The position numbers and the translations under genes are program-made. Source: SAR86 cluster bacterium (GTDB lineage Bacteria; Pseudomonadota; Gammaproteobacteria; Magnimaribacterales; D2472). From it: a DNA stretch of 59,802 nt. The notes below the pieces were generated by a model. The model searched no databases, was not told the origin of the DNA, and worked only from the letters and a program-made list of their open reading frames with translations. Every line of letters begins with the position of its first letter. Position 1 is the stretch's first letter. Shown here piece after piece: positions 375 through 9,067 of this stretch. The DNA is taken from the NCBI GenBank assembly GCA_004212975.1, contig SHBF01000003.1, forward strand, positions 1 to 59,802, written 5' to 3'.

Positions 375-769
375 GCGTTATAATTAAAGGATATTTACTT
401 ATAATTGGTGTTACTTCAATAGTAATGGGTTTATGGGCAATGTTTGGACCAGAATTTGTGTCTTGGTATCCTGCCTTTGATGGTGTAGAAAGATATACTC
501 CTTTGGCAAATTTTATCAGAACAATGTCTGGAGTTTTTGTTGCATCTGGCTATATTCTTGTCCGGTTTATTTTTTCCTCATCAAAAGTTCAACTTGGCAC
601 AGTTTTAATATACATGTGTGCATTCATGCTTCTAGGTAAAGCTTGTGGATTATATTACGAGGGATATCATTTTCATGATGTCATTGCATCAATTTTAGGT
701 GTACTTACTCTTATCGGTCTGACAATAGTCCACAGACAAAGAAAAAATTTACTTAATTACGATCTTTAA
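371..769 (+). CDS. 4-TM membrane protein, DUF4345-like
   Basis: Start reassigned to ATG 371 (ATGA overlap with upstream gene); four hydrophobic helices. Confidence 0.6.
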   Translation: MSVIIKGYLLIIGVTSIVMGLWAMFGPEFVSWYPAFDGVERYTPLANFIRTMSGVFVASGYILVRFIFSSSKVQLGTVLIYMCAFMLLGKACGLYYEGYHFHDVIASILGVLTLIGLTIVHRQRKNLLNYDL

Positions 770-814
770 AAATTTTCCACTTAGACAATATAACTATATA
801 TAATGCATATGCCT

Positions 815-899
815 GGGGATGTGGTGGAACTGGTAGACACGCTTGGCTTAGAACCAAGTGCCGCAAGGCGTGGGGGTTCGACTCCCTCCATCCTTACCA
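815..899 (+). tRNA. tRNA-Leu(TAG)
   Basis: Cloverleaf GGGGATG...CATCCTT-A-CCA, anticodon arm CTTGG-CT-TAG-AA-CCAAG, long variable arm GCCGCAAGGC, T-loop GGTTCGACTCC. Confidence 0.97.
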
Positions 900-975
900 A
901 TTTTATATAAAAAATAGATACTTTTTTTATCAAATTACTAGTTAAATTGTATTTTACATATATACTCATTTAGGT

Positions 976-1020
976 ATGTTAATTGTTAACTTACATAAAG
1001 AGCGGGGAGCAGCAGCATAG
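976..1020 (+). CDS. Candidate leader peptide MLIVNLHKERGAAA (14 aa)
   Basis: ATG 976 to TAG 1018-1020; ends CGG GGA GCA GCA GCA TAG; TATACT -10-like box at 961-966; directly upstream of alternative hairpins. Confidence 0.45.
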   Translation: MLIVNLHKERGAAA

Positions 1021-1068
1021 CTGGGGTGCTTTTTATTATTTGACCCAGCCTTTGCTGGGTTTTTTTTT
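1005..1068 (+). promoter_or_regulatory. Candidate transcription attenuator (1:2, 2:3 and 3:4 hairpins) in the TBDR leader
   Basis: GGGAGCA-G-CAGC/ATA/GCTG-GGG-TGCTTTT (1005-1033); GCTGGG 1020-1025 complementary to CCCAGC 1044-1049; terminator follows. Confidence 0.55.
1043..1068 (+). terminator. Intrinsic terminator directly upstream of the TBDR ribosome-binding site
   Basis: ACCCAGC-CTTT-GCTGGGT stem-loop followed by 8 more T; SD GAGAGGA begins at 1069. Confidence 0.8.
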
Positions 1069-1083
1069 GAGAGGATATGAATT

Positions 1084-3447
1084 ATGAAAAACTTTAAAAC
1101 AATTTTGTGCACACTAATTTTGGCACCATTTATTTTGATTTCACAAGAAGTTGAAGAAGTCATAGTAACAGCAAACAAAAAAGCTGAGACTGTGCAAGAA
1201 ATACCTATGAATATATCTGTAATAACAGAATTAGCTATCGAGGAACGAGGTATAACTAACCCTGAAGACTACTTGAGATCTATTGCTGGTGTTTCAACTC
1301 CTGGTGGCTCAAATTACTATACTTTTAGGGGCTTAAACACATCTACCTCTCAAAGATCTTCAGGGACGTCATCTACATATATTGATGAAATTAATGGAAC
1401 TTTAATGGGATTATTTGATGTTGAAAGAATAGAGGTTCTTAGAGGGCCTCAAGGAACGCTTTACGGATCAAATGCAATCGGTGGAACTATAAGATACATA
1501 ACTAATAAACCAGATTCTAGCGCTGCATATGGGAAGATTAGACTGGGTTATGGTGACAAGGTTAAAGCAGGTGATCCTGAAACAAGCATTGAAATGATGT
1601 ACAACATGCCTTTAAGTGACAGCCTTGCTGTAAGAGCGGTATATTCTCAACTTGTATCACCTGGAATCTATAAAAATATACAAACTGGTAAAACAGTTGG
1701 TGAAGAGGATGATTCGCAACTTATGATCACTCTTGGTTTTAACGATGGAGGCAAACTTACAGGAAGTTTAAGGTACATTAATTTCAATAATAAAGCATTT
1801 GGTATTTTAGAGCCTGGTCAGAGCAAGCCTGGTAGTGCTGACGTATATGTTGAGGGATGTCCTCAAGCAACAGGCTGGTTTTATAATTTTGAAGGTGATC
1901 CAACTTGCTCACGTTTAGACGCAATATCCTCGTTTGCAGCTTCAGAGGGAGTAAGTGGAGTTCTTTCAAATTATGACCCTAAGTTTTCTCATGCCTTAGC
2001 TGCTGATGAATCTGAAGATATTACAAGAGAAATCATTGTAGCTAATCTAAAATATGATTTTGGCCTCTTTGATGCAAACCTAATTATTTCTGATAGAACG
2101 GTTACCGATGATTCGGTTACAGACTGGGCTAGAATTGACATGGATGATTACGTTCCAGCACCACTAATTGTAGATGGTGATGAATATTACGAAGAGACAA
2201 CAGAACTTAGATTAATCTCAAAGCCAGGAAAATTTGAGTGGACTATTGGATATTACAATTATAAGTTCAATGAAGAAGCTAACTCAATATCACAAACACA
2301 ATATGCAATGGATCAGGATTGGTTAGAGTATGTAATGCTTTATGCGGCTGGTTTGAGTCCTGGTGATTATGACGCAACAGCATATTGCCCTCCATTTTGT
2401 GAAGGTCATCTAGGTTATCCTTATTTTTATTATGGATCTTACACTGAATATAATGAACAAGAAGAAACATCTATGTATGGTCAATTTGACTATAACGTCA
2501 ATGATAAATTAACTCTAACATTAGGTATTAGAGATTATGAAATTGATGATGCATCTAAGTCTTACCAGTATGGCATATTTTTTATGGGTAGTACTGGGTG
2601 TGATGGTAATGATCCATCCGGTACTGACTGTTCGGAGTTATCAGGCTCAGAGTCTGACACTAGGATGAAATATGCAGCAAGTTATAGGGTTAATGAAGAT
2701 TTAACATTGTATGCAACTCAAGCAGCAGGTTACAGACCTGGAGGAAATCAGGCGCCACTTCCTCCATTCTGTAGTAGTGATGAAGCAGCTCAAGCTAATT
2801 TTTCAAGAAGATTTAATTCTGATGAAGCTGAAACTACTGAATTTGGTGTGAAAGCTAGAGGGGAAAATTATACTGCTAATGTTACTTATTTTGATGTTGA
2901 CTGGGATGGAATTATTATCCAAGTTACTCCTGGTTGTGGCTGGAGATATAATTTTAATGGCGGTAAAGCTGAAACCTCTGGTTGGGAATTTGATTTTACA
3001 TATGCAGTTAATGATTCTGTTTCTCTGGATTTTGCTGGAAGCTCAATGACTGCGGAAACATCAATTGATATTGTTTCACTTGGAGCATCTGCTGGTGACA
3101 GACTTCCAAATACAGTTGAAAAACAATGGAACCTTGGATTGGTATATGACACCTCAATAATGTCATATCCAACTTATGCAAGGCTTGATGTAAATTATTA
3201 TGGAGATAGTTTTAATACCTTTGCTGAAAATCCAAATTCAAGCTCTCCAGATTACACAAAGCTAAACTTTAATCTTGGATTAGATTTGAATGAAAATTCT
3301 AAATTACAACTATCTGTAGATAATCTTACAGACGAAAGAACTGAAGCATATGTCTATGCAGTGAATGACACATCCTGGAGACCAAGAAATTGGATGCAGT
3401 GGATACCTCCAAGAACTGTCAGCTTGAAATATTCTTTTAGTTTCTAA
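1084..3447 (+). CDS. TonB-dependent receptor
   Basis: Signal peptide, TonB box EEVIVTA, plug motif ERIEVLRGPQGTLYG, C-terminal ..DNLTDE..PRTVSLKYSFSF with terminal Phe. Confidence 0.95.
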   Translation: MKNFKTILCTLILAPFILISQEVEEVIVTANKKAETVQEIPMNISVITELAIEERGITNPEDYLRSIAGVSTPGGSNYYTFRGLNTSTSQRSSGTSSTYIDEINGTLMGLFDVERIEVLRGPQGTLYGSNAIGGTIRYITNKPDSSAAYGKIRLGYGDKVKAGDPETSIEMMYNMPLSDSLAVRAVYSQLVSPGIYKNIQTGKTVGEEDDSQLMITLGFNDGGKLTGSLRYINFNNKAFGILEPGQSKPGSADVYVEGCPQATGWFYNFEGDPTCSRLDAISSFAASEGVSGVLSNYDPKFSHALAADESEDITREIIVANLKYDFGLFDANLIISDRTVTDDSVTDWARIDMDDYVPAPLIVDGDEYYEETTELRLISKPGKFEWTIGYYNYKFNEEANSISQTQYAMDQDWLEYVMLYAAGLSPGDYDATAYCPPFCEGHLGYPYFYYGSYTEYNEQEETSMYGQFDYNVNDKLTLTLGIRDYEIDDASKSYQYGIFFMGSTGCDGNDPSGTDCSELSGSESDTRMKYAASYRVNEDLTLYATQAAGYRPGGNQAPLPPFCSSDEAAQANFSRRFNSDEAETTEFGVKARGENYTANVTYFDVDWDGIIIQVTPGCGWRYNFNGGKAETSGWEFDFTYAVNDSVSLDFAGSSMTAETSIDIVSLGASAGDRLPNTVEKQWNLGLVYDTSIMSYPTYARLDVNYYGDSFNTFAENPNSSSPDYTKLNFNLGLDLNENSKLQLSVDNLTDERTEAYVYAVNDTSWRPRNWMQWIPPRTVSLKYSFSF

Positions 3448-3454
3448 ATTTTAA

Positions 3455-3483
3455 TGGATGAAGAGATAATATCTCTTCATCCA
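3455..3483 (+). terminator. Perfect 13-bp stem-loop after the TBDR (terminator or mRNA stabiliser)
   Basis: TGGATGAAGAGAT-AAT-ATCTCTTCATCCA; weak U-tract. Confidence 0.6.
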
Positions 3484-3543
3484 ACTTTAATTAGCTATAA
3501 AAATACTAATCTTGTATAGTTTTTTAAAATTAGGTAAAACTAT

Positions 3544-4524
3544 ATGAGAATTATTTTTATATATATTCTTACACTTTCTATCATTGTTTGTTCTGATGAC
3601 GAAGATATTGTCGAAACAAATATTGTTAATCTAAAAGAATACACTGTCGATAAAAGCTCATATTGCAAAGAAAGAGCTGAACCAAAAAATTTAATATGGT
3701 TCCAGAATTTTGATGAAAATTATCTATCTCCAGATGTTTGGAATTATTCAACTTCAAATGGTTTTTACGATGGAAAAGAATTTATTAGTGGTTGGGGCAA
3801 TGGAGAACTACAGTACTATACAAAGCCCAGAAAATTAGAAAGTAATAACAATACGTCTAAAAACCTTTTTATTGAAAATGGGTATTTAAAAATACAACCT
3901 ATATATAGAAAAGATAAATCACGAATCAGCAGCGGTGAAGATGCATATAACTTTACTTCAGCAAGAATTAACACCAAAAACCTTAAATCTTTTTCCTATC
4001 CATCAAAAATTTCAATATGCTTTAAGGTTCCAAAAGGAATTGGATTTTGGCCTGCATTTTGGTTGATGCCAAGTGAAGATATTAGATGGCCAGTTGGAGG
4101 AGAAATTGATATTTTAGAAAATAGAGGCAGAATATCTAATATTTCAAGCTCTGCTCTTCATTTTGGCAAACAATGGAATAAAAAATCTACGCTTGTGGGT
4201 GAAGCTTTAATTCCAAGGCAGGTTCGCTTCCAAGATAAATTTCATTCTATATCTTTGGTATGGAAGGAAAATGTCATTGCTTTTTATCTTGATAATTCTT
4301 CGGATCCATATTTCACTATAAATTCTGATCATCCAGAATTTCAAAAATATAAGTACCCATTCAATAGAGATTATTACATGATTTTAAACGTAGCGGTTGG
4401 AGGTAAATATGATGATTATTGGGTTGATTTTGATGCATTTTGCAATGATGAAGAGTGTTCAAATAAAGAAGATCCTGATAGTCATAGATTTATAATTGAT
4501 TGGATTGAATATGAGAGACTTTAA
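3544..4524 (+). CDS. Glycoside hydrolase family 16 (laminarinase / beta-1,3-glucanase-like), probably exported
   Basis: GWGNGELQYY, FTSARINT, GFWPAFWLM, catalytic GEIDILE (ExDxxE), ILNVAVGG. Confidence 0.92.
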   Translation: MRIIFIYILTLSIIVCSDDEDIVETNIVNLKEYTVDKSSYCKERAEPKNLIWFQNFDENYLSPDVWNYSTSNGFYDGKEFISGWGNGELQYYTKPRKLESNNNTSKNLFIENGYLKIQPIYRKDKSRISSGEDAYNFTSARINTKNLKSFSYPSKISICFKVPKGIGFWPAFWLMPSEDIRWPVGGEIDILENRGRISNISSSALHFGKQWNKKSTLVGEALIPRQVRFQDKFHSISLVWKENVIAFYLDNSSDPYFTINSDHPEFQKYKYPFNRDYYMILNVAVGGKYDDYWVDFDAFCNDEECSNKEDPDSHRFIIDWIEYERL

Positions 4525-4547: not shown

Positions 4548-5906
4548 ATGTCTAGGGGATTTATATTATCAGATGAAATTCTTGATCATAAGATCAATTC
4601 TCCTGCTTTTGAAGAAAAGCATAACTTTGATGCATCAGGTAAATTAAATGATTTAGAGCTCTTCACTAAAGGGCAACCCTTCAGTCTATATAAAGAACTT
4701 AGAGAAAATGCACCAATATATTTTCATGATCCTATGCCTATGGATCCTGAGCCTGGTTATTGGGTATTAACCAAATATGAAGATATAAAGTATGTATCAA
4801 TGAATCCAAAAATTTTTTCGTCGCAATATGCTACTGGCAATATGCTAACGCTAGGATCAGAAAAAAATAGACACCCTAAATTATTTAAATCAACTATAGA
4901 CCATATGTTAAATTTGGATGGAGAAATGCATCTTAATCTAAGAAAAGAGCATATGCCATTTTTTAAGCCTGGATACGTAGATGAATTAAAACAAAAAGTT
5001 TCTTTGAAAGTTACTGAGTTACTGGATCAAATTGCTCCAATGGGTGAGTGCAATCTTGTTAAAGAAGTATCTCAACAATTACCTATTTACACTCTCTCAG
5101 AAATACTTGGAATTCCGGATGAAGACAGACAAAAATTAGTCTCTTGGATGGAATTTCTTGAATTAGCTCAATACTTTACTTATGAAATGATAAAAGAGCA
5201 AAATGAGGGCAAGACAGATTCAACCCCAGATTCAGCGCTGATACATATGTTTAATGCAATGGTTGATGAAATGTTTGATTACGGAAGATTCATTCTTAAA
5301 AACAAAAGAAAGAATCCATCAAATGATCTTTTGAGTGCTATTGCTAATGCAAAAATAGAAGGTGAAGAGCTTTCTGATGAATTTCTTGATGGATCTTGGC
5401 TGTTAATAATTTTTGCAGGTAACGACACTACTAGAAATACAATGAGCGGCGGCATTAAACTTCTTCATGAGAATCAGCATCAAAAAGAGTTATTAATTAA
5501 TAATTATGACTTACTTCCAGGTTTTATTAATGAGACTGTAAGATGTGTTTCACCAGTAATTCATATGAGAAGAACATCTCTCATTGAAACAGAAATAGGT
5601 GGCCAAAAGATTGGTCCTCATGAAAAGATAGCATTATGGTATGGAGCCGCAAATAGAGATCCAGAAATTTTTGATAAACCTGATGAATTTAATATTCAAA
5701 GAGAAAATGCAGAAAAACATCTTGCTTTTGGTATAGGCAGGCATACATGCCTTGGTAAACCAATTGCTTTGATGCAATTGAATGAATTTTATTCACAATT
5801 TCTTAAGAGATTTCCGGATTTTGAAATGGATGGTGAATGGAAGGTGGCCCCAAATAATTTTGTTCACGCTATTCAAGAAATGCCAATTAAATTTACTAAA
5901 GAATGA
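4548..5906 (+). CDS. Cytochrome P450
   Basis: I-helix AGNDTT, ExxR (ETVR), heme motif FGIGRHTCLG. Confidence 0.95.
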   Translation: MSRGFILSDEILDHKINSPAFEEKHNFDASGKLNDLELFTKGQPFSLYKELRENAPIYFHDPMPMDPEPGYWVLTKYEDIKYVSMNPKIFSSQYATGNMLTLGSEKNRHPKLFKSTIDHMLNLDGEMHLNLRKEHMPFFKPGYVDELKQKVSLKVTELLDQIAPMGECNLVKEVSQQLPIYTLSEILGIPDEDRQKLVSWMEFLELAQYFTYEMIKEQNEGKTDSTPDSALIHMFNAMVDEMFDYGRFILKNKRKNPSNDLLSAIANAKIEGEELSDEFLDGSWLLIIFAGNDTTRNTMSGGIKLLHENQHQKELLINNYDLLPGFINETVRCVSPVIHMRRTSLIETEIGGQKIGPHEKIALWYGAANRDPEIFDKPDEFNIQRENAEKHLAFGIGRHTCLGKPIALMQLNEFYSQFLKRFPDFEMDGEWKVAPNNFVHAIQEMPIKFTKE

Positions 5907-7177
5907 TAATACCTTATAGATTTAAAGTAGTTTTTTTATCATTCTTAGCTGTTTTTATTTGTTATATAGATAGAGTTAATATTTCTGTTGCAATCATTCC
6001 TATGCAAGAGCAGTTTGGATGGTCTGAATCGCAGGTTGGTATTATTTTGGGATCATTTTATTTCGGATATATGATCACAATGATTCTTGGTGGATATTTA
6101 GCTGATAAATATGGCGGTAAAAAGGTTCTTGGATTTGCACTACTAATTTGGTCATTATTTACAATCATTACTCCTTTTTTTGCTTACCAAGGATTGTGGT
6201 GGTTAATATTAATTAGAATTCTAATGGGTCTAGGAGAAGGGGTTACTTTTCCTTCATGGCATGCAATATATGCTAGATGGATACCATTTCAAGAAAGAAC
6301 AAGATCAATAGGTTTTACTAATAGTGGTATAGCTGCCGGGACACTATTTGGATTTGCAGTTGCAGCATTGATAATTGCAAATTACTCTTGGGAATGGGTC
6401 TTTTATTTATTTGGATTACTAGGATTTTTTTGGTATTTTTTCTGGAATAGAATAGTTACATCTTTTCCAGAGGATAATAAGCTTCTTTCAGATGAGGAAT
6501 TACATTATATAAAGACTCAAGCACCTTCTAAAGAATCTGCTCCAACAATTCCGCTTTTAAAACTTATAAGAAATGCTCCTTTTATGGCAATAGCAGTTGC
6601 AACATTTTGTAATAATTGGTCTTTATATACATTTCTTTCTTACTTACCAAAATATGTTAATGCTCCCGTTGCCCAAGGTGGAATGGGAATAGACTTAGGA
6701 TCAAATGTATTTATTTATTCAATACTTATACCAAGTTTTGTTGCAATTTTTTCTTTGATATTGGGAGGCTTTTTAGCTGATGGTTTAATCAAAAGGGGAT
6801 ATGGCTTACTCAACATAAGAAAAAGTGTAAATTCAATAGGTTTTTTTGGTTCGGCATTACTGTTATACCTAATATCGTTGGAGGATTCTCTTATAAATCT
6901 TGTCATATTATTGAGCCTAATTAATGTATGTTCTGGCATATGTGCAGGCGGTTTTGGAGTTAATCATGCTGATCTAGGCCCTAAATATACTGGTTCATTG
7001 GTAGGAATCGCAGGAAGTATTGGAATGCTTGCAGCAATTATGAGCCCAATAGCTGCAGGATATATTCTTGAAATAACTAACTCTTGGAATTCTATATTTT
7101 ATGTCTGTACATTTGTACTTATATTCGGCGGGACCTTTTATTTGCTTTTTGCAAGTGTTGAAAAACAATTCGATTAA
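5903..7177 (+). CDS. MFS transporter, anion:cation symporter (ACS/SLC17-like)
   Basis: YIDRVNISVA, GYLADKYGGKKV motif A, RILMGLGEG, ~12 TM. Confidence 0.9.
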   Translation: MIIPYRFKVVFLSFLAVFICYIDRVNISVAIIPMQEQFGWSESQVGIILGSFYFGYMITMILGGYLADKYGGKKVLGFALLIWSLFTIITPFFAYQGLWWLILIRILMGLGEGVTFPSWHAIYARWIPFQERTRSIGFTNSGIAAGTLFGFAVAALIIANYSWEWVFYLFGLLGFFWYFFWNRIVTSFPEDNKLLSDEELHYIKTQAPSKESAPTIPLLKLIRNAPFMAIAVATFCNNWSLYTFLSYLPKYVNAPVAQGGMGIDLGSNVFIYSILIPSFVAIFSLILGGFLADGLIKRGYGLLNIRKSVNSIGFFGSALLLYLISLEDSLINLVILLSLINVCSGICAGGFGVNHADLGPKYTGSLVGIAGSIGMLAAIMSPIAAGYILEITNSWNSIFYVCTFVLIFGGTFYLLFASVEKQFD

Positions 7178-7677
7178 TTTCTAACCATATTTTGGAAAAA
7201 ATCAAATATTTCCTGACTTGATCTATCTCTAGCAGTTCTCCATTCTGTAGTATTTGAGTTATTTATTACATTTTTGTTTTTATCAAAGACCAAAACTCTT
7301 GGAATCCCCTCAGCAGAAGCAATTCCAAATTCCTCCATTAAATTCATATTTATTTCATATCTAAGAACGTCTATATAAAGAACATTAAATTTTTCATTAA
7401 TATGTTTTTCAATTTTAGGAATATTCATTGTTCCAGAGAATATCCTACAATCCGGGCACCAATTTGCTCCAAAAATAAGTATTGGTTGTTTTCCGTCTTT
7501 AATTGATTTATCAATAAAGTTATCCAGGAATTCAACACTATAAATTTCTCCATTGTAGGGCAACGGAAGTGGTGTAGTTAATTTGTCATCTTCATCAAGC
7601 ATAATATTTCCATTAATATTAATACAAATTAAAAAAAAGTATGAAATATTAATATATTTGATTACACTCTTTAACAT
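7174..7677 (-). CDS. Thioredoxin-family protein
   Basis: FGANWCPDC motif, GIP cis-Pro loop. Confidence 0.85.
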   Translation of the reverse strand: MLKSVIKYINISYFFLICININGNIMLDEDDKLTTPLPLPYNGEIYSVEFLDNFIDKSIKDGKQPILIFGANWCPDCRIFSGTMNIPKIEKHINEKFNVLYIDVLRYEINMNLMEEFGIASAEGIPRVLVFDKNKNVINNSNTTEWRTARDRSSQEIFDFFQNMVRN

Positions 7678-7714: not shown

Positions 7715-8128
7715 TTGATCTGGATTATTAGATTGTACCTGTTATTCATGGCATTTATATATACCCTGATTGGAGCTTGGGCAATATTAGATCCCTTACT
7801 TGGCGCTCTAGAACTGGGCTATCCAAGTTTTTTAAATGCTGTAGGTCTCTCAATAACATCTCCATTAGGATATTCTGAAATAGCTGGATTATATGGTGGT
7901 TTAAACTTATGTTTGGGCATTATGTGTCTAGTGGGTATTTTTAAAAGAGACATAGGCATTTTCTCAATTAAATTTGTAACCTTTCTAGTTGGATCAATTG
8001 CATTTGGTAGAGTAATTTTTTCTATGCTTCCAACAACCCCTGGCTTCTATAATCCTTACTTTGTTTTTGAAGTCATCGCTTTTTTTGTTGGAATAACGCT
8101 GTTATATCTTCAAAAGAAATTAAATTAA
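7715..8128 (+). CDS. DUF4345-like membrane protein
   Basis: TTG start; SEIAGLYGG motif, FGR motif, four TM. Confidence 0.7.
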   Translation: MIWIIRLYLLFMAFIYTLIGAWAILDPLLGALELGYPSFLNAVGLSITSPLGYSEIAGLYGGLNLCLGIMCLVGIFKRDIGIFSIKFVTFLVGSIAFGRVIFSMLPTTPGFYNPYFVFEVIAFFVGITLLYLQKKLN

Positions 8129-9067
8129 ATTACTCAAACTTAATAAATATAAAACATAACTACTCACAAATAATATACCGACTAGGCGAATCGCATTTAC
8201 TGAAAATACTTTGTTTGAATAAAATAGTACTACCAACATAAAAACAATTGTTGCTGAGAACATTATTGTGAAGTCCCTGCTTAATAGAACTTGATCTAGC
8301 TGAACGCTTGAAAAAAAACCAATAATTGGAACAACTAATGTAATGTTTAACACATTTGATCCAATAACATTTCCAACTACCATGTCAGTTTTCTTTTTTA
8401 AAACCGCGCTTATTGTAGCTGCTAATTCTGGAAGGCTTGTTCCAATAGCAATGATAGTTAATCCAATAATCAATTCTGAAATATTTAACAAAATAGCAAT
8501 TTTTTCTGCATAAATGACTGCATATCTTGAACCAAAGATTAATGAAATTAATCCTATGGTCAAAAAAATTAAAGTAATTGAATTATTTTTATCTTGTTGT
8601 TCATCAATTAATGTTTGACTATCTCTATTTGTATTTATTACATACAAAAAATAACAAAAGCTTAATAACAAAAGGACTCCATCAAATTTTGAGACGTTTA
8701 AATCAATTAATACGTATCCAAGAATTAATGCTGAAACTAAAAAAGGCATTAGCTGAATTATTGGTGTTTTTTTTGGTAAAAAAGAAATACCTATACATGA
8801 AACACCAAATATTAGTGCAATGTTAGATATGTTTGATCCAACAACTGCGCCCATAGCAATGCTTTCACTTTTATTTAAAACAGAAGAAATTCCTACGAAT
8901 ATTTCAGGAGCGGAAGTGCCCAATGCAACTATAGTCAATCCTATTGTTAATTCACTAACTCCAATCTTCTTTGCAATTAAAGATGAGTTATCTACAAATT
9001 TGTCTGCACCCCAAATTAATACAGCCAATGAAGCAACTAAACCTAGGAAGTTGATTAGGAAATCCAT
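8120..9067 (-). CDS. Calcium/sodium antiporter (CaCA, YrbG-like)
   Basis: Two alpha repeats GTSAPE..GSNI and GTSLPE..GSNV. Confidence 0.92.
   Translation of the reverse strand: MDFLINFLGLVASLAVLIWGADKFVDNSSLIAKKIGVSELTIGLTIVALGTSAPEIFVGISSVLNKSESIAMGAVVGSNISNIALIFGVSCIGISFLPKKTPIIQLMPFLVSALILGYVLIDLNVSKFDGVLLLLSFCYFLYVINTNRDSQTLIDEQQDKNNSITLIFLTIGLISLIFGSRYAVIYAEKIAILLNISELIIGLTIIAIGTSLPELAATISAVLKKKTDMVVGNVIGSNVLNITLVVPIIGFFSSVQLDQVLLSRDFTIMFSATIVFMLVVLFYSNKVFSVNAIRLVGILFVSSYVLYLLSLSNLI

Follow-up and report, generated by a model that had tools for sequence, protein, structure and literature searches.

The 59,802-nucleotide stretch of a SAR86 cluster bacterium analysed here (contig SHBF01000003.1 of assembly GCA_004212975.1; hereafter the window) carries, at positions 961–1068 and directly before a gene for a TonB-dependent receptor (TBDR), a short leader that is probably a functional ribosome-coupled transcription attenuator of the trp type, with an arginine CGG codon as its sensing codon. 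Judged by sequence comparison, this leader is homologous to the leader of an argF'-argG-argB-argC-argH operon, which sister genera possess, as do three species of the window's own genus (g1). The chances appear evenly balanced that the attenuator outlived its operon in arginine auxotrophs and was exapted to sense hunger without a transcription factor, in that a single CGG codon and low arginyl-tRNA would switch on the TBDR/laminarinase locus, with the arg-operon leader representing an undescribed class of arginine attenuators in bacteria without ArgR. The genome to which the window belongs (G000) comprises 0.85 Mb, has a GC content of 32% and is 75% complete, and genomes of g1 measure ~1.0–1.3 Mb.

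Anatomy of the Leader in the Window

An earlier note, made from the window's letters alone, had proposed the attenuator on the basis of a -10 hexamer, an upstream open reading frame (uORF), a second segment, a terminator and the Shine-Dalgarno sequence of the TBDR gene, and on reading the window all of these elements were found where it had placed them. The leader and its two neighbours are composed as follows:

815–899, + strand: tRNA-Leu (anticodon TAG), the upstream neighbour of the leader (ARAGORN; Rfam tRNA, 54.9 bits)
961–966, + strand: -10 hexamer TATACT of the leader promoter (window reading and leader alignment)
976–1020, + strand: leader-peptide uORF MLIVNLHKERGAAA*, 14 codons plus TAG, no Shine-Dalgarno sequence, predicted 5' untranslated region of ~0–3 nt
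1003–1005, + strand: CGG arginine codon, codon 10 and five codons before the stop, the proposed stall and sensing codon
1010–1013, + strand: segment 1, CAGC, which pairs with segment 2 (folding)
1020–1025, + strand: segment 2, GCTGGG (GCUGGG), which would pair with 1044–1049 as antiterminator
1042–1068, + strand: intrinsic terminator, with segment 3 (GACCCAGC, 1042–1049), the loop CUUU, segment 4 and a U-run to 1068
1069–1075, + strand: Shine-Dalgarno sequence GAGAGGA of the TBDR gene (window reading, alignment)
1084–3447, + strand: TBDR of 787 amino acids, Plug and beta-barrel (Pfam PF07715, PF00593), directly behind the leader

The uORF reads ATG (976) TTA ATT GTT AAC TTA CAT AAA GAG CGG GGA GCA GCA GCA TAG (1018–1020), and the G of its stop codon is the first base of segment 2, which is in sequence a copy of the 3' arm of the terminator (segment 4, 1054–1061; GCTGGGTT as DNA, GCUGGGUU as RNA). 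By a consensus scan, this terminator is the sole one in 700–1300 (mean of shuffled sequences, 0.3), and none was found by the same scan between tRNA-Leu and the leader in the window. The fold of 961–1090 has a z-score of -2.2, with 5 of 200 shuffles equally good, which goes only modestly beyond shuffled sequence, so that the single sequence by itself offers weak evidence, and it is comparison across genomes that carries the case.

The Leader Stands Before Arginine Genes in Related Genomes

In a search of 41 genomes of g1 (G000 and 40 relatives), orthologs of the TBDR with 67–98% identity were found in 16 further genomes, and all 17 loci first examined bear the same leader, consisting of TATACT, a start codon, an open reading frame (ORF) of 13–16 codons, CGG, a stop at (T)AGCTGG and the terminator. 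The gene 5' of the leader–TBDR unit varies by locus, being tRNA-Leu in some and a protein gene in others; since the leader accompanies the TBDR whatever stands upstream, the hairpin belongs to the receptor and is not merely the end of tRNA-Leu read-through, an explanation that the earlier note had listed against its own proposal.

A covariance model (R1) was built from these 17 leaders and used to search 139 genomes of the family, of which 66 gave exactly one strong match each (55–108 bits). The matches are distributed over the genera g1 (30/41, including G000), g10 (1/1), g12 (7/7), g14 (1/9), g15 (5/9), g16 (1/1) and g17 (21/25), and no strong match was obtained in g11 and g13. The 11 genomes of g1 without the leader also lack both the TBDR and the arg operon. 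Behind the 66 leaders stand the TBDR in 27 cases (all in g1), argF' in 38 and a truncated MFS gene in one. The 30 leaders of g1 divide into 27 before the TBDR and three (G007, G043, and G046) before ArgF', here a 335-amino-acid N-acetylornithine carbamoyltransferase (NF003384, 520 bits against a cut-off of 288), and outside g1 an ArgF' homolog with 66–81% identity (tblastn) follows 112–130 nt after the match in 35/36. The leader always lies 8–35 nt from the start codon of a specific gene, TBDR or argF'. In G007, G043, and G046 the leader peptide is MNILNTQRRRDMVE, with the consecutive codons CGA AGA CGG.

Complete arg loci were read in two genomes, G007 (g1) and G142 (g17), and the order of leader, argF', argG, argB, argC, argH and MFS is identical in both. 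A thioredoxin-like neighbour on the opposite strand is found in both genomes, as at window positions 7174–7677, and G007 also shares the Na/Ca antiporter found at 8120–9067 of the window. The slot between leader and MFS is thus occupied by TBDR-GH16-P450 in the window and by arg genes elsewhere. The earlier note had assigned the attenuator to the TBDR/GH16 locus; the argF' leaders point not to an invention for a TBDR but to the co-option of an arginine-operon attenuator.

The single exception to both arrangements is found in G112 (L121, G112:C2:271271-272225, minus strand), where the leader is followed by an MFS gene without ~60 N-terminal residues and no arg genes are present; its leader peptide is identical to that of G141, and a recent deletion seems to have made a true relic of the leader here. 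Weak R1 matches (28–36 bits) were set aside, as the seven that were fetched are all plain 3' terminators with an ACCCAGC/GCTGGGT stem and not leaders. At L180–L184 (G051, G015, G010, G142, and G149), ACCCAGC/GCTGGGT with a T-run serves again, this time as 3' terminator behind an unrelated conserved gene. The common 'MKNF' start of ArgF' and TBDR was considered as a fusion junction and judged uninformative in an AT-rich genome.

A Conserved Reading Frame With an Invariant CGG Codon

For comparison, the 66 leaders (alignment A4) were split into a TBDR class (n = 27) and another, non-TBDR class (n = 39). The earlier note had made its proposal depend on conservation of the uORF in orthologous leaders, and this is borne out, as the frame is open in 66/66 leaders (27 TBDR and 39 other), compared to 11/66 and 12/66 for the +1 and +2 frames. 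The ORF has 14 codons in 59/66 (TBDR 21/27, other 38/39) and begins with ATG in 59 and GTG in seven leaders (20 ATG and 7 GTG in the TBDR class, 39/39 ATG in the other). Among the 17 TBDR leaders the spacing from CAT to CGG differs by 0, +3 or +6 nt, as is expected of a translated frame, and 23 distinct peptides are encoded by the 27 leaders of the TBDR class.

CGG is present in all 66 leaders (27/27 TBDR, 39/39 other), and in 63 of them it stands five codons before the stop (TBDR 25/27, other 38/39). At least two arginine codons are found in 44/66 leaders overall, namely 37/39 of the other class and 7/27 of the TBDR class; in the other class these are mostly AGA CGG at codons 9–10, and arg-type leaders carry two or three. 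The argF' leaders of G117 and G121 have a single CGG each, so one arginine codon can suffice in a biosynthetic context. A TAG stop whose G opens segment 2 is kept in 59/66 (TBDR 22/27, other 37/39). In one arg-type leader (L144, G148:C2:115146-116097) the TAG is lost, and the ORF is one codon longer and ends on a TGA inside segment 2 (GCTGAG).

Of all sense codons, CGG is used least in G000 (26 of 163,103 codons in 338 long ORFs, 0.5% of arginine codons). The 33 tRNA genes of G019, a genome that is 96% complete, include tRNA-Arg with the anticodons UCU, UCG, and ACG, and neither tRNA-Arg(CCG) nor tRNA-Arg(CCU) was found among them (L033–L074); G000 does have tRNA-Arg(CCU). The absence of tRNA-Arg(CCG) from the G019 set suggests that CGG is read by wobble. 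A stall-based sensor requires an invariant, slowly read arginine codon whose distance from the stop is fixed, and the earlier note's choice of CGG as stall codon is hence supported by its presence in every leader, its rarity and the lack of a CCG-anticodon tRNA in G019. The same note had offered the alanine triplet behind CGG as an alternative sensor, which can be dropped, since the triplet is not conserved among leaders. That CGG might be kept because CGGG pairs with the CCC of segment 3 is unlikely, as three leaders with CGGAGA retain the CGG.

The -10 hexamer is TATACT in 58/66 leaders (TBDR 27/27, other 31/39) and TATAAT, TATCAT or TATTAT in the remainder, and the uORF starts 6–10 nt past it in 66/66. 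This leaves no room for a Shine-Dalgarno sequence before the uORF start, so that the transcript would begin at most ~3 nt from the start codon and be near-leaderless. A -35 element TTTACA is present in 42/66 leaders, most of them in the other class (TBDR 5/27, other 37/39), and TBDR leaders mostly have TAGNNA. In the window, the region concerned is:

911–944, + strand: upstream promoter region, in which a AAAATAGATACTTTTTTTAT.. block is conserved and TAGTTA at 939–944 weakly resembles a -35 element (alignment, promoter tally)

The TAGTTA is separated from the -10 hexamer by a 16-nt spacer. The block AAAATAGATACTTTTTTTAT(C/T)AAA..CTAGTTA is kept in TBDR-type leaders where arg-type leaders have the consensus -35 TTTACA, and it may be a candidate activator site or a second -10-like element (GATACT/TATACT). 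At position 969, between the -10 hexamer and the uORF start, the contigs from RNA libraries of three runs have C instead of T, which is probably strain variation. A second promoter (TTTACA 953–958/TATGTT 975–980) was taken as incidental, its conservation being confined to close relatives, and a -10-like TATTAT (1034–1039) noticed by eye, which would place a start within the hairpin and bypass the terminator, shows no conservation in the alignment.

Predicted Alternative RNA Pairings

Three competing pairings are predicted in the window RNA. The 1:2 structure (995–1040) has a predicted energy of -14.1 kcal/mol and is lengthened by an outer helix (995–1004/1027–1036), the 2:3 antiterminator (G1020–G1025 with C1044–C1049) has -10.6 kcal/mol and the 3:4 terminator (1042–1069) -12.5 kcal/mol. 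The 2:3 pairing, whose retention in orthologous leaders the earlier note had likewise named as decisive, appears to be kept, as the five base pairs GCUGG/CCAGC are possible in 17/17 leaders, a sixth pair in 13 and a seventh in 10, and variation in the two arms is wobble-compatible throughout these 17 leaders. The terminator is present in all 66 rows of A4, where (T)AGCTGG is nearly invariant. In the other class, the 1:2 hairpin has a mean energy of -5.8 kcal/mol with a median of 2/200 shuffles as good, and it is formed by several segment-1 sequences with a constant segment 2.

The earlier note had also proposed stem covariation as a check, and this holds for one part of the structure: the terminator stem (8 pairs) contains one compensatory change from C-G to U-A (two sequences, L011 and L013), and none is found in the 2:3 helix, the arms of which are nearly invariant. 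As segments 2, 3, and 4 hardly vary, covariation neither supports nor tests the 2:3 helix.

Proposed Mechanism

On the model that these features suggest, transcription would start ~7 nt past the -10 hexamer TATACT, and the RNA would begin at or just before the AUG of the 14-codon ORF. A ribosome that reaches the UAG would cover segment 2, upon which the 3:4 terminator could form and transcription would stop at the U-run, 15 nt before the TBDR start codon. A ribosome waiting at codon 10, the CGG presumably read by wobble from scarce tRNA-Arg, would instead cover segment 1 and free segment 2, which could then pair with segment 3, so that no terminator would form and the polymerase would read into the TBDR gene. 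When there is no translation, segments 1 and 2 would pair and termination would follow. By a footprint rule under which coverage extends ~15 nt past the first base in the P site on the downstream side, the RNA would be covered to ~1015 when CGG occupies the A site (segment 1 covered, segment 2 free), and to ~1030, including segment 2, when the ribosome is at the stop.

The window leader may still sense arginyl-tRNA or, more loosely, the speed of translation at CGG, by which uptake would be tied to arginine hunger in an auxotroph. The gene that it would control is a TBDR and not one for the synthesis or charging of arginine, unlike in the 38 of 66 family members that precede argF', and the window copy therefore is a leader-peptide attenuator by descent and architecture, not by target.

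Public RNA data are consistent with a transcript across the element. Fourteen seawater runs labelled as RNA contain 87–95% of the sampled words of 800–3500, and in three of four runs examined (from four studies) a single contig extends from 870–878 across leader and terminator to beyond 1700, the fourth reaching from 999 to beyond 1700. The mean depth of these bridging contigs is 56–182, compared to 10–18 in adjacent upstream contigs. As the runs are represented by contigs, start and end points, strand and local depth cannot be read from them, and carry-over of DNA may have occurred, so that they are weak evidence that RNA libraries bridge the leader, the terminator and the 5' part of the TBDR gene. 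The contig ends at 870–878 were considered as RNA ends and are read as assembly break points, lying as they do in a conserved tRNA gene.

Loss of Arginine Genes and Probable Direction of Change

Arginine biosynthesis is classically controlled by ArgR-type repressors. The ArgR domain (PF01316) was found over its cut-off in 0/139 genomes of the family, compared to 8/14 control genomes. Within g1, argF' is present in 3/41 genomes and argH over its cut-off in 2/41 (the third arg-type contig is cut off), and neither gene was found in any of the seven g1 genomes that are at least 90% complete, from which it appears that most g1 species are probably arginine auxotrophs. In the SAR86 study by Dupont et al. 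(2012; PMC3358033), one genome is described as lacking arginine synthesis and another as having it at the syntenic locus, and the authors state that large parts of natural SAR86 populations are arginine auxotrophs.

At TBDR orthologs outside g1, no leader was found in 11 upstream regions (g11, g14, g15, g17, and g18) and at two TBDR loci of another family, as checked by eye and with the covariance model with filters off. In G139 (g17; L175/L176, G139:C3:58520-61700) the order is tRNA-Leu, TBDR (77% identity), leader and argF', by which the receptor seems to have long adjoined this locus. In a quick maximum-likelihood tree built from 38 TBDRs, the 27 leader-bearing genes share one clade, with two leaderless g17 genes nested in it (two changes), and the leader–TBDR junction persists through the deepest split in the TBDR clade, though the upstream genes differ. 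Because the leader stands with arg genes in seven genera with shared synteny and with the TBDR in one, the arg arrangement would be ancestral and the TBDR arrangement derived, the latter having presumably arisen once or twice. The sequence comparison thus suggests that the leader of the arg operon was retained and placed before the TBDR/laminarinase-type uptake locus, and the switch of the leader to the TBDR coincides with the loss of arg genes. The interval from tRNA-Leu to MFS is an apparent hot spot of exchange between the TBDR, the GH16 gene, a Rieske oxygenase and the arg operon.

Evidence Against an Attenuator and Alternative Explanations

A number of observations weigh against a functional attenuator before the TBDR. 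Covariation in the 2:3 helix is nil, with no pair varying on both sides and shuffles giving the observed value, and the terminator outcompetes the antiterminator at equilibrium, so that the switch must be kinetic; the switch of the trp attenuator is likewise kinetic. The 1:2 hairpin is weaker in the TBDR class (mean -3.1 kcal/mol, median 32/200 shuffles as good, and likewise 32/200 for the window's own). In the same class, the -35 TTTACA is replaced in 22/27 leaders, the arginine codon stands alone in 20/27, the stop is displaced by 3–4 nt in 5/27 and GTG starts, which are poor for leaderless initiation, occur in 7/27 as opposed to 0/39 in the other class, so that TBDR-type leaders look partly relaxed relative to arg-type leaders. 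The tRNA inventory is that of one genome, 96% complete, and the RNA contigs reach to ~870 inside the tRNA gene, and DNA or tRNA read-through may contribute to them. A need of the beta-glucan uptake locus for an arginine signal is not evident from physiology. The earlier note had further argued that the terminator ends so close to the TBDR gene that no downstream promoter would fit and the gene must be made by read-through; the layout is as described, and the argument loses force in that strict terminators abut the next gene at 12 other sites of the 0.85-Mb genome G000.

Many of these points would also suit a relic, in which a promoter and a leaky constitutive terminator keep receptor mRNA at a fixed low level and insulate the gene from tRNA-Leu read-through, while the uORF senses nothing. 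The loss of the second arginine codon, the GTG starts, the weaker 1:2 hairpin and the remodelled -35 all fit such a decay, as do the lack of a terminator between tRNA-Leu and leader, the RNA contigs that extend from the tRNA gene into the TBDR gene, the frequency of terminator-then-gene layouts in G000 and the precedent of G112. However, 27/27 TBDR leaders preserve the open ORF, CGG, segment 2 and the terminator, and 25/27 preserve the distance from CGG to stop, and this conservation persists while 23 peptides differ, the TBDRs drop to 67–68% identity and the upstream DNA becomes unalignable between subgroups. A mere level-setter needs neither an open frame nor the rarest codon at a fixed place, and the leader goes with the TBDR even where there is no upstream tRNA to be insulated from, which makes a relic of this kind unlikely, although it deserves more weight than the two explanations that follow.

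The terminated transcript of ~95 nt could also act mainly in trans as a small RNA, similar to RyhB, PrrF or rnTrpL, with the receptor expressed by incidental read-through. An AU-rich tract followed by a terminator resembles an Hfq-binding module, and the terminated trp attenuator RNA of Sinorhizobium is described as acting in trans. In Rfam 15, RyhB (RF00057) matches 1005–1067 with 26.8 bits and PrrF (RF00444) matches with 18.6 bits, yet these scores are far under the gathering scores of 55 and 90, and the matches to RyhB, PrrF, rimP-leader and AbsR28 were all rejected as sub-threshold and resting on the terminator and the AU tract. As the element moreover always lies 8–35 nt from the start of TBDR or argF', and arginine codons ahead of arg genes indicate a function in cis, a main role in trans is very improbable, and the leader RNA may have a side role of this type.

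The smallest probability is given to a ligand-binding riboswitch or a protein-dependent antiterminator (BglG/LicT type) with a coincidental ORF, which the earlier note had named as its alternative. Conserved blocks do occur outside the pairing segments, e.g., (T/C)ACA(T/C)AA and CGGG, and antitermination in response to a sugar would fit a sugar-uptake locus. Against this, the Rfam scan, which the earlier note had suggested, gave no family for either leader type, tRNA alone reaching its gathering score (window 700–1300 and five arg-type loci), and the ~45 nt upstream of segment 2 hold no conserved multi-helix fold. The open frame, its fixed start after the -10 hexamer, the spacings of 0, +3 and +6 nt and the arginine codons before arg genes are fitting for translation and not for a ligand pocket.

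Relation to Known Attenuators

The ribosome-coupled attenuator proposed here is a mechanism of known kind, and what would be new is the amino acid sensed, the near-leaderless design with a single rare codon and the co-option to an uptake receptor. The class of the Escherichia coli trp attenuator (trpL) also includes the his, leu, thr, phe, and ilv attenuators, and the trp leader peptide has 14 residues with Trp at positions 10–11. Common to trpL and the SAR86 leader are a short ORF with sensing codons a few codons before the stop, four segments that form, or in the SAR86 leader are predicted to form, 1:2, a 2:3 antiterminator and a 3:4 terminator with U-run, a stop codon abutting segment 2 and a kinetic switch with a terminator more stable than the antiterminator. 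The SAR86 leader differs from trpL in that arginine would be sensed, that there is no Shine-Dalgarno sequence and the ORF begins 6–10 nt past the -10 hexamer, and that there are only one to three sensing codons, one of which is always the genome's rarest codon; the window leader differs further in that it would control an outer-membrane receptor and not a biosynthetic enzyme.

Partial counterparts exist in other bacteria. In the orf34 (SpeFL) leader of Salmonella speF-potE, adjacent codons for arginine, AGG CGG, sense arginine via ribosome pausing, which it shares with the SAR86 leader as a short upstream ORF with arginine codons; it differs by Rho-dependent termination, RNase G decay, masking of the ribosome-binding site and a leader of ~500 nt (PMC6386406), and also by a Shine-Dalgarno sequence and an arrest peptide that senses ornithine, whereas the SAR86 leader has ~95 nt and an intrinsic terminator. 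The polycysteine ORFs of mycobacteria (bioRxiv 10.1101/834739) are alike in being leaderless ORFs at the 5' end that sense an amino acid by their codons, but belong to another phylum, sense another amino acid and have many sensing codons. In Sinorhizobium meliloti, trpL encodes a 14-amino-acid leader peptide and the terminated attenuator RNA, rnTrpL, is released (PMC6614838; PMC7968998), a parallel for a second role, in trans, that a terminated leader RNA might play. In the full-text literature searched, from which subscription journals are largely absent, no description was found of any arg operon under a leader-peptide attenuator for arginine, and the full texts likewise held none of an attenuator before a TBDR or of any attenuator in SAR86.

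A family without the ArgR domain (0/139) thus appears to carry a compact, near-leaderless attenuator with arginine codons instead, and the same switch of ~100 nt before argF' in 38 genomes and before the TBDR in 27 would be a natural case of regulatory exaptation. Ocean bacteria of this type are abundant and uncultured, and their ecology is considered to be shaped by auxotrophies and by a large number of TonB receptors. If the model is true, the coupling of uptake genes to an auxotrophic requirement by such a sensor would be a testable link between auxotrophy and TonB receptors, carbon foraging would be linked to amino-acid status, and the leader could serve as a marker in metatranscriptomes via the ratio of terminated to read-through RNA.

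The TBDR Locus and Other Terminators of the Genome

Downstream of the TBDR gene, the window contains the following features:

3455–3483, + strand: perfect 13-bp hairpin with a 3-nt loop and a poor T-tail, 8 nt past the TBDR stop, between TBDR and GH16
3544–4524, + strand: GH16 beta-1,3-glucanase, laminarinase type (Pfam PF00722; best solved relatives the laminarinases 4dfs and 3azx, E ~1e-36)
4548–5906, + strand: cytochrome P450 (Pfam PF00067)
5903–7177, + strand: MFS transporter of the anion:cation symporter type, which overlaps the P450 stop and closes the arg operon in arg-type genomes (G007, G142)

The hairpin at 3455–3483 may be a partial terminator or an element of RNA stability. Control by the leader follows from the layout for the TBDR gene only, and co-transcription of the genes downstream is uncertain.

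The 12 other terminators of G000 that abut a gene end 0–58 nt before the ATG of the next gene on the same strand, and no leader peptide was seen by eye at any of these sites. They lie on contigs C1, C3, C4, C8, C15, C23 (48614), C25, C27, and C38 and bring the number of matches to 13 with that of the window; read-through or embedded promoters seem common in this compact genome. On the minus strand of C38, a sequence of ~110 nt with a terminator (AACAGAG../..CTCTGTT) occurs three times (~64, 4065, and 8067) at a spacing of ~4 kb and stands before the same ORF start twice; it is a tandem repeat or else an artefact of the assembly.

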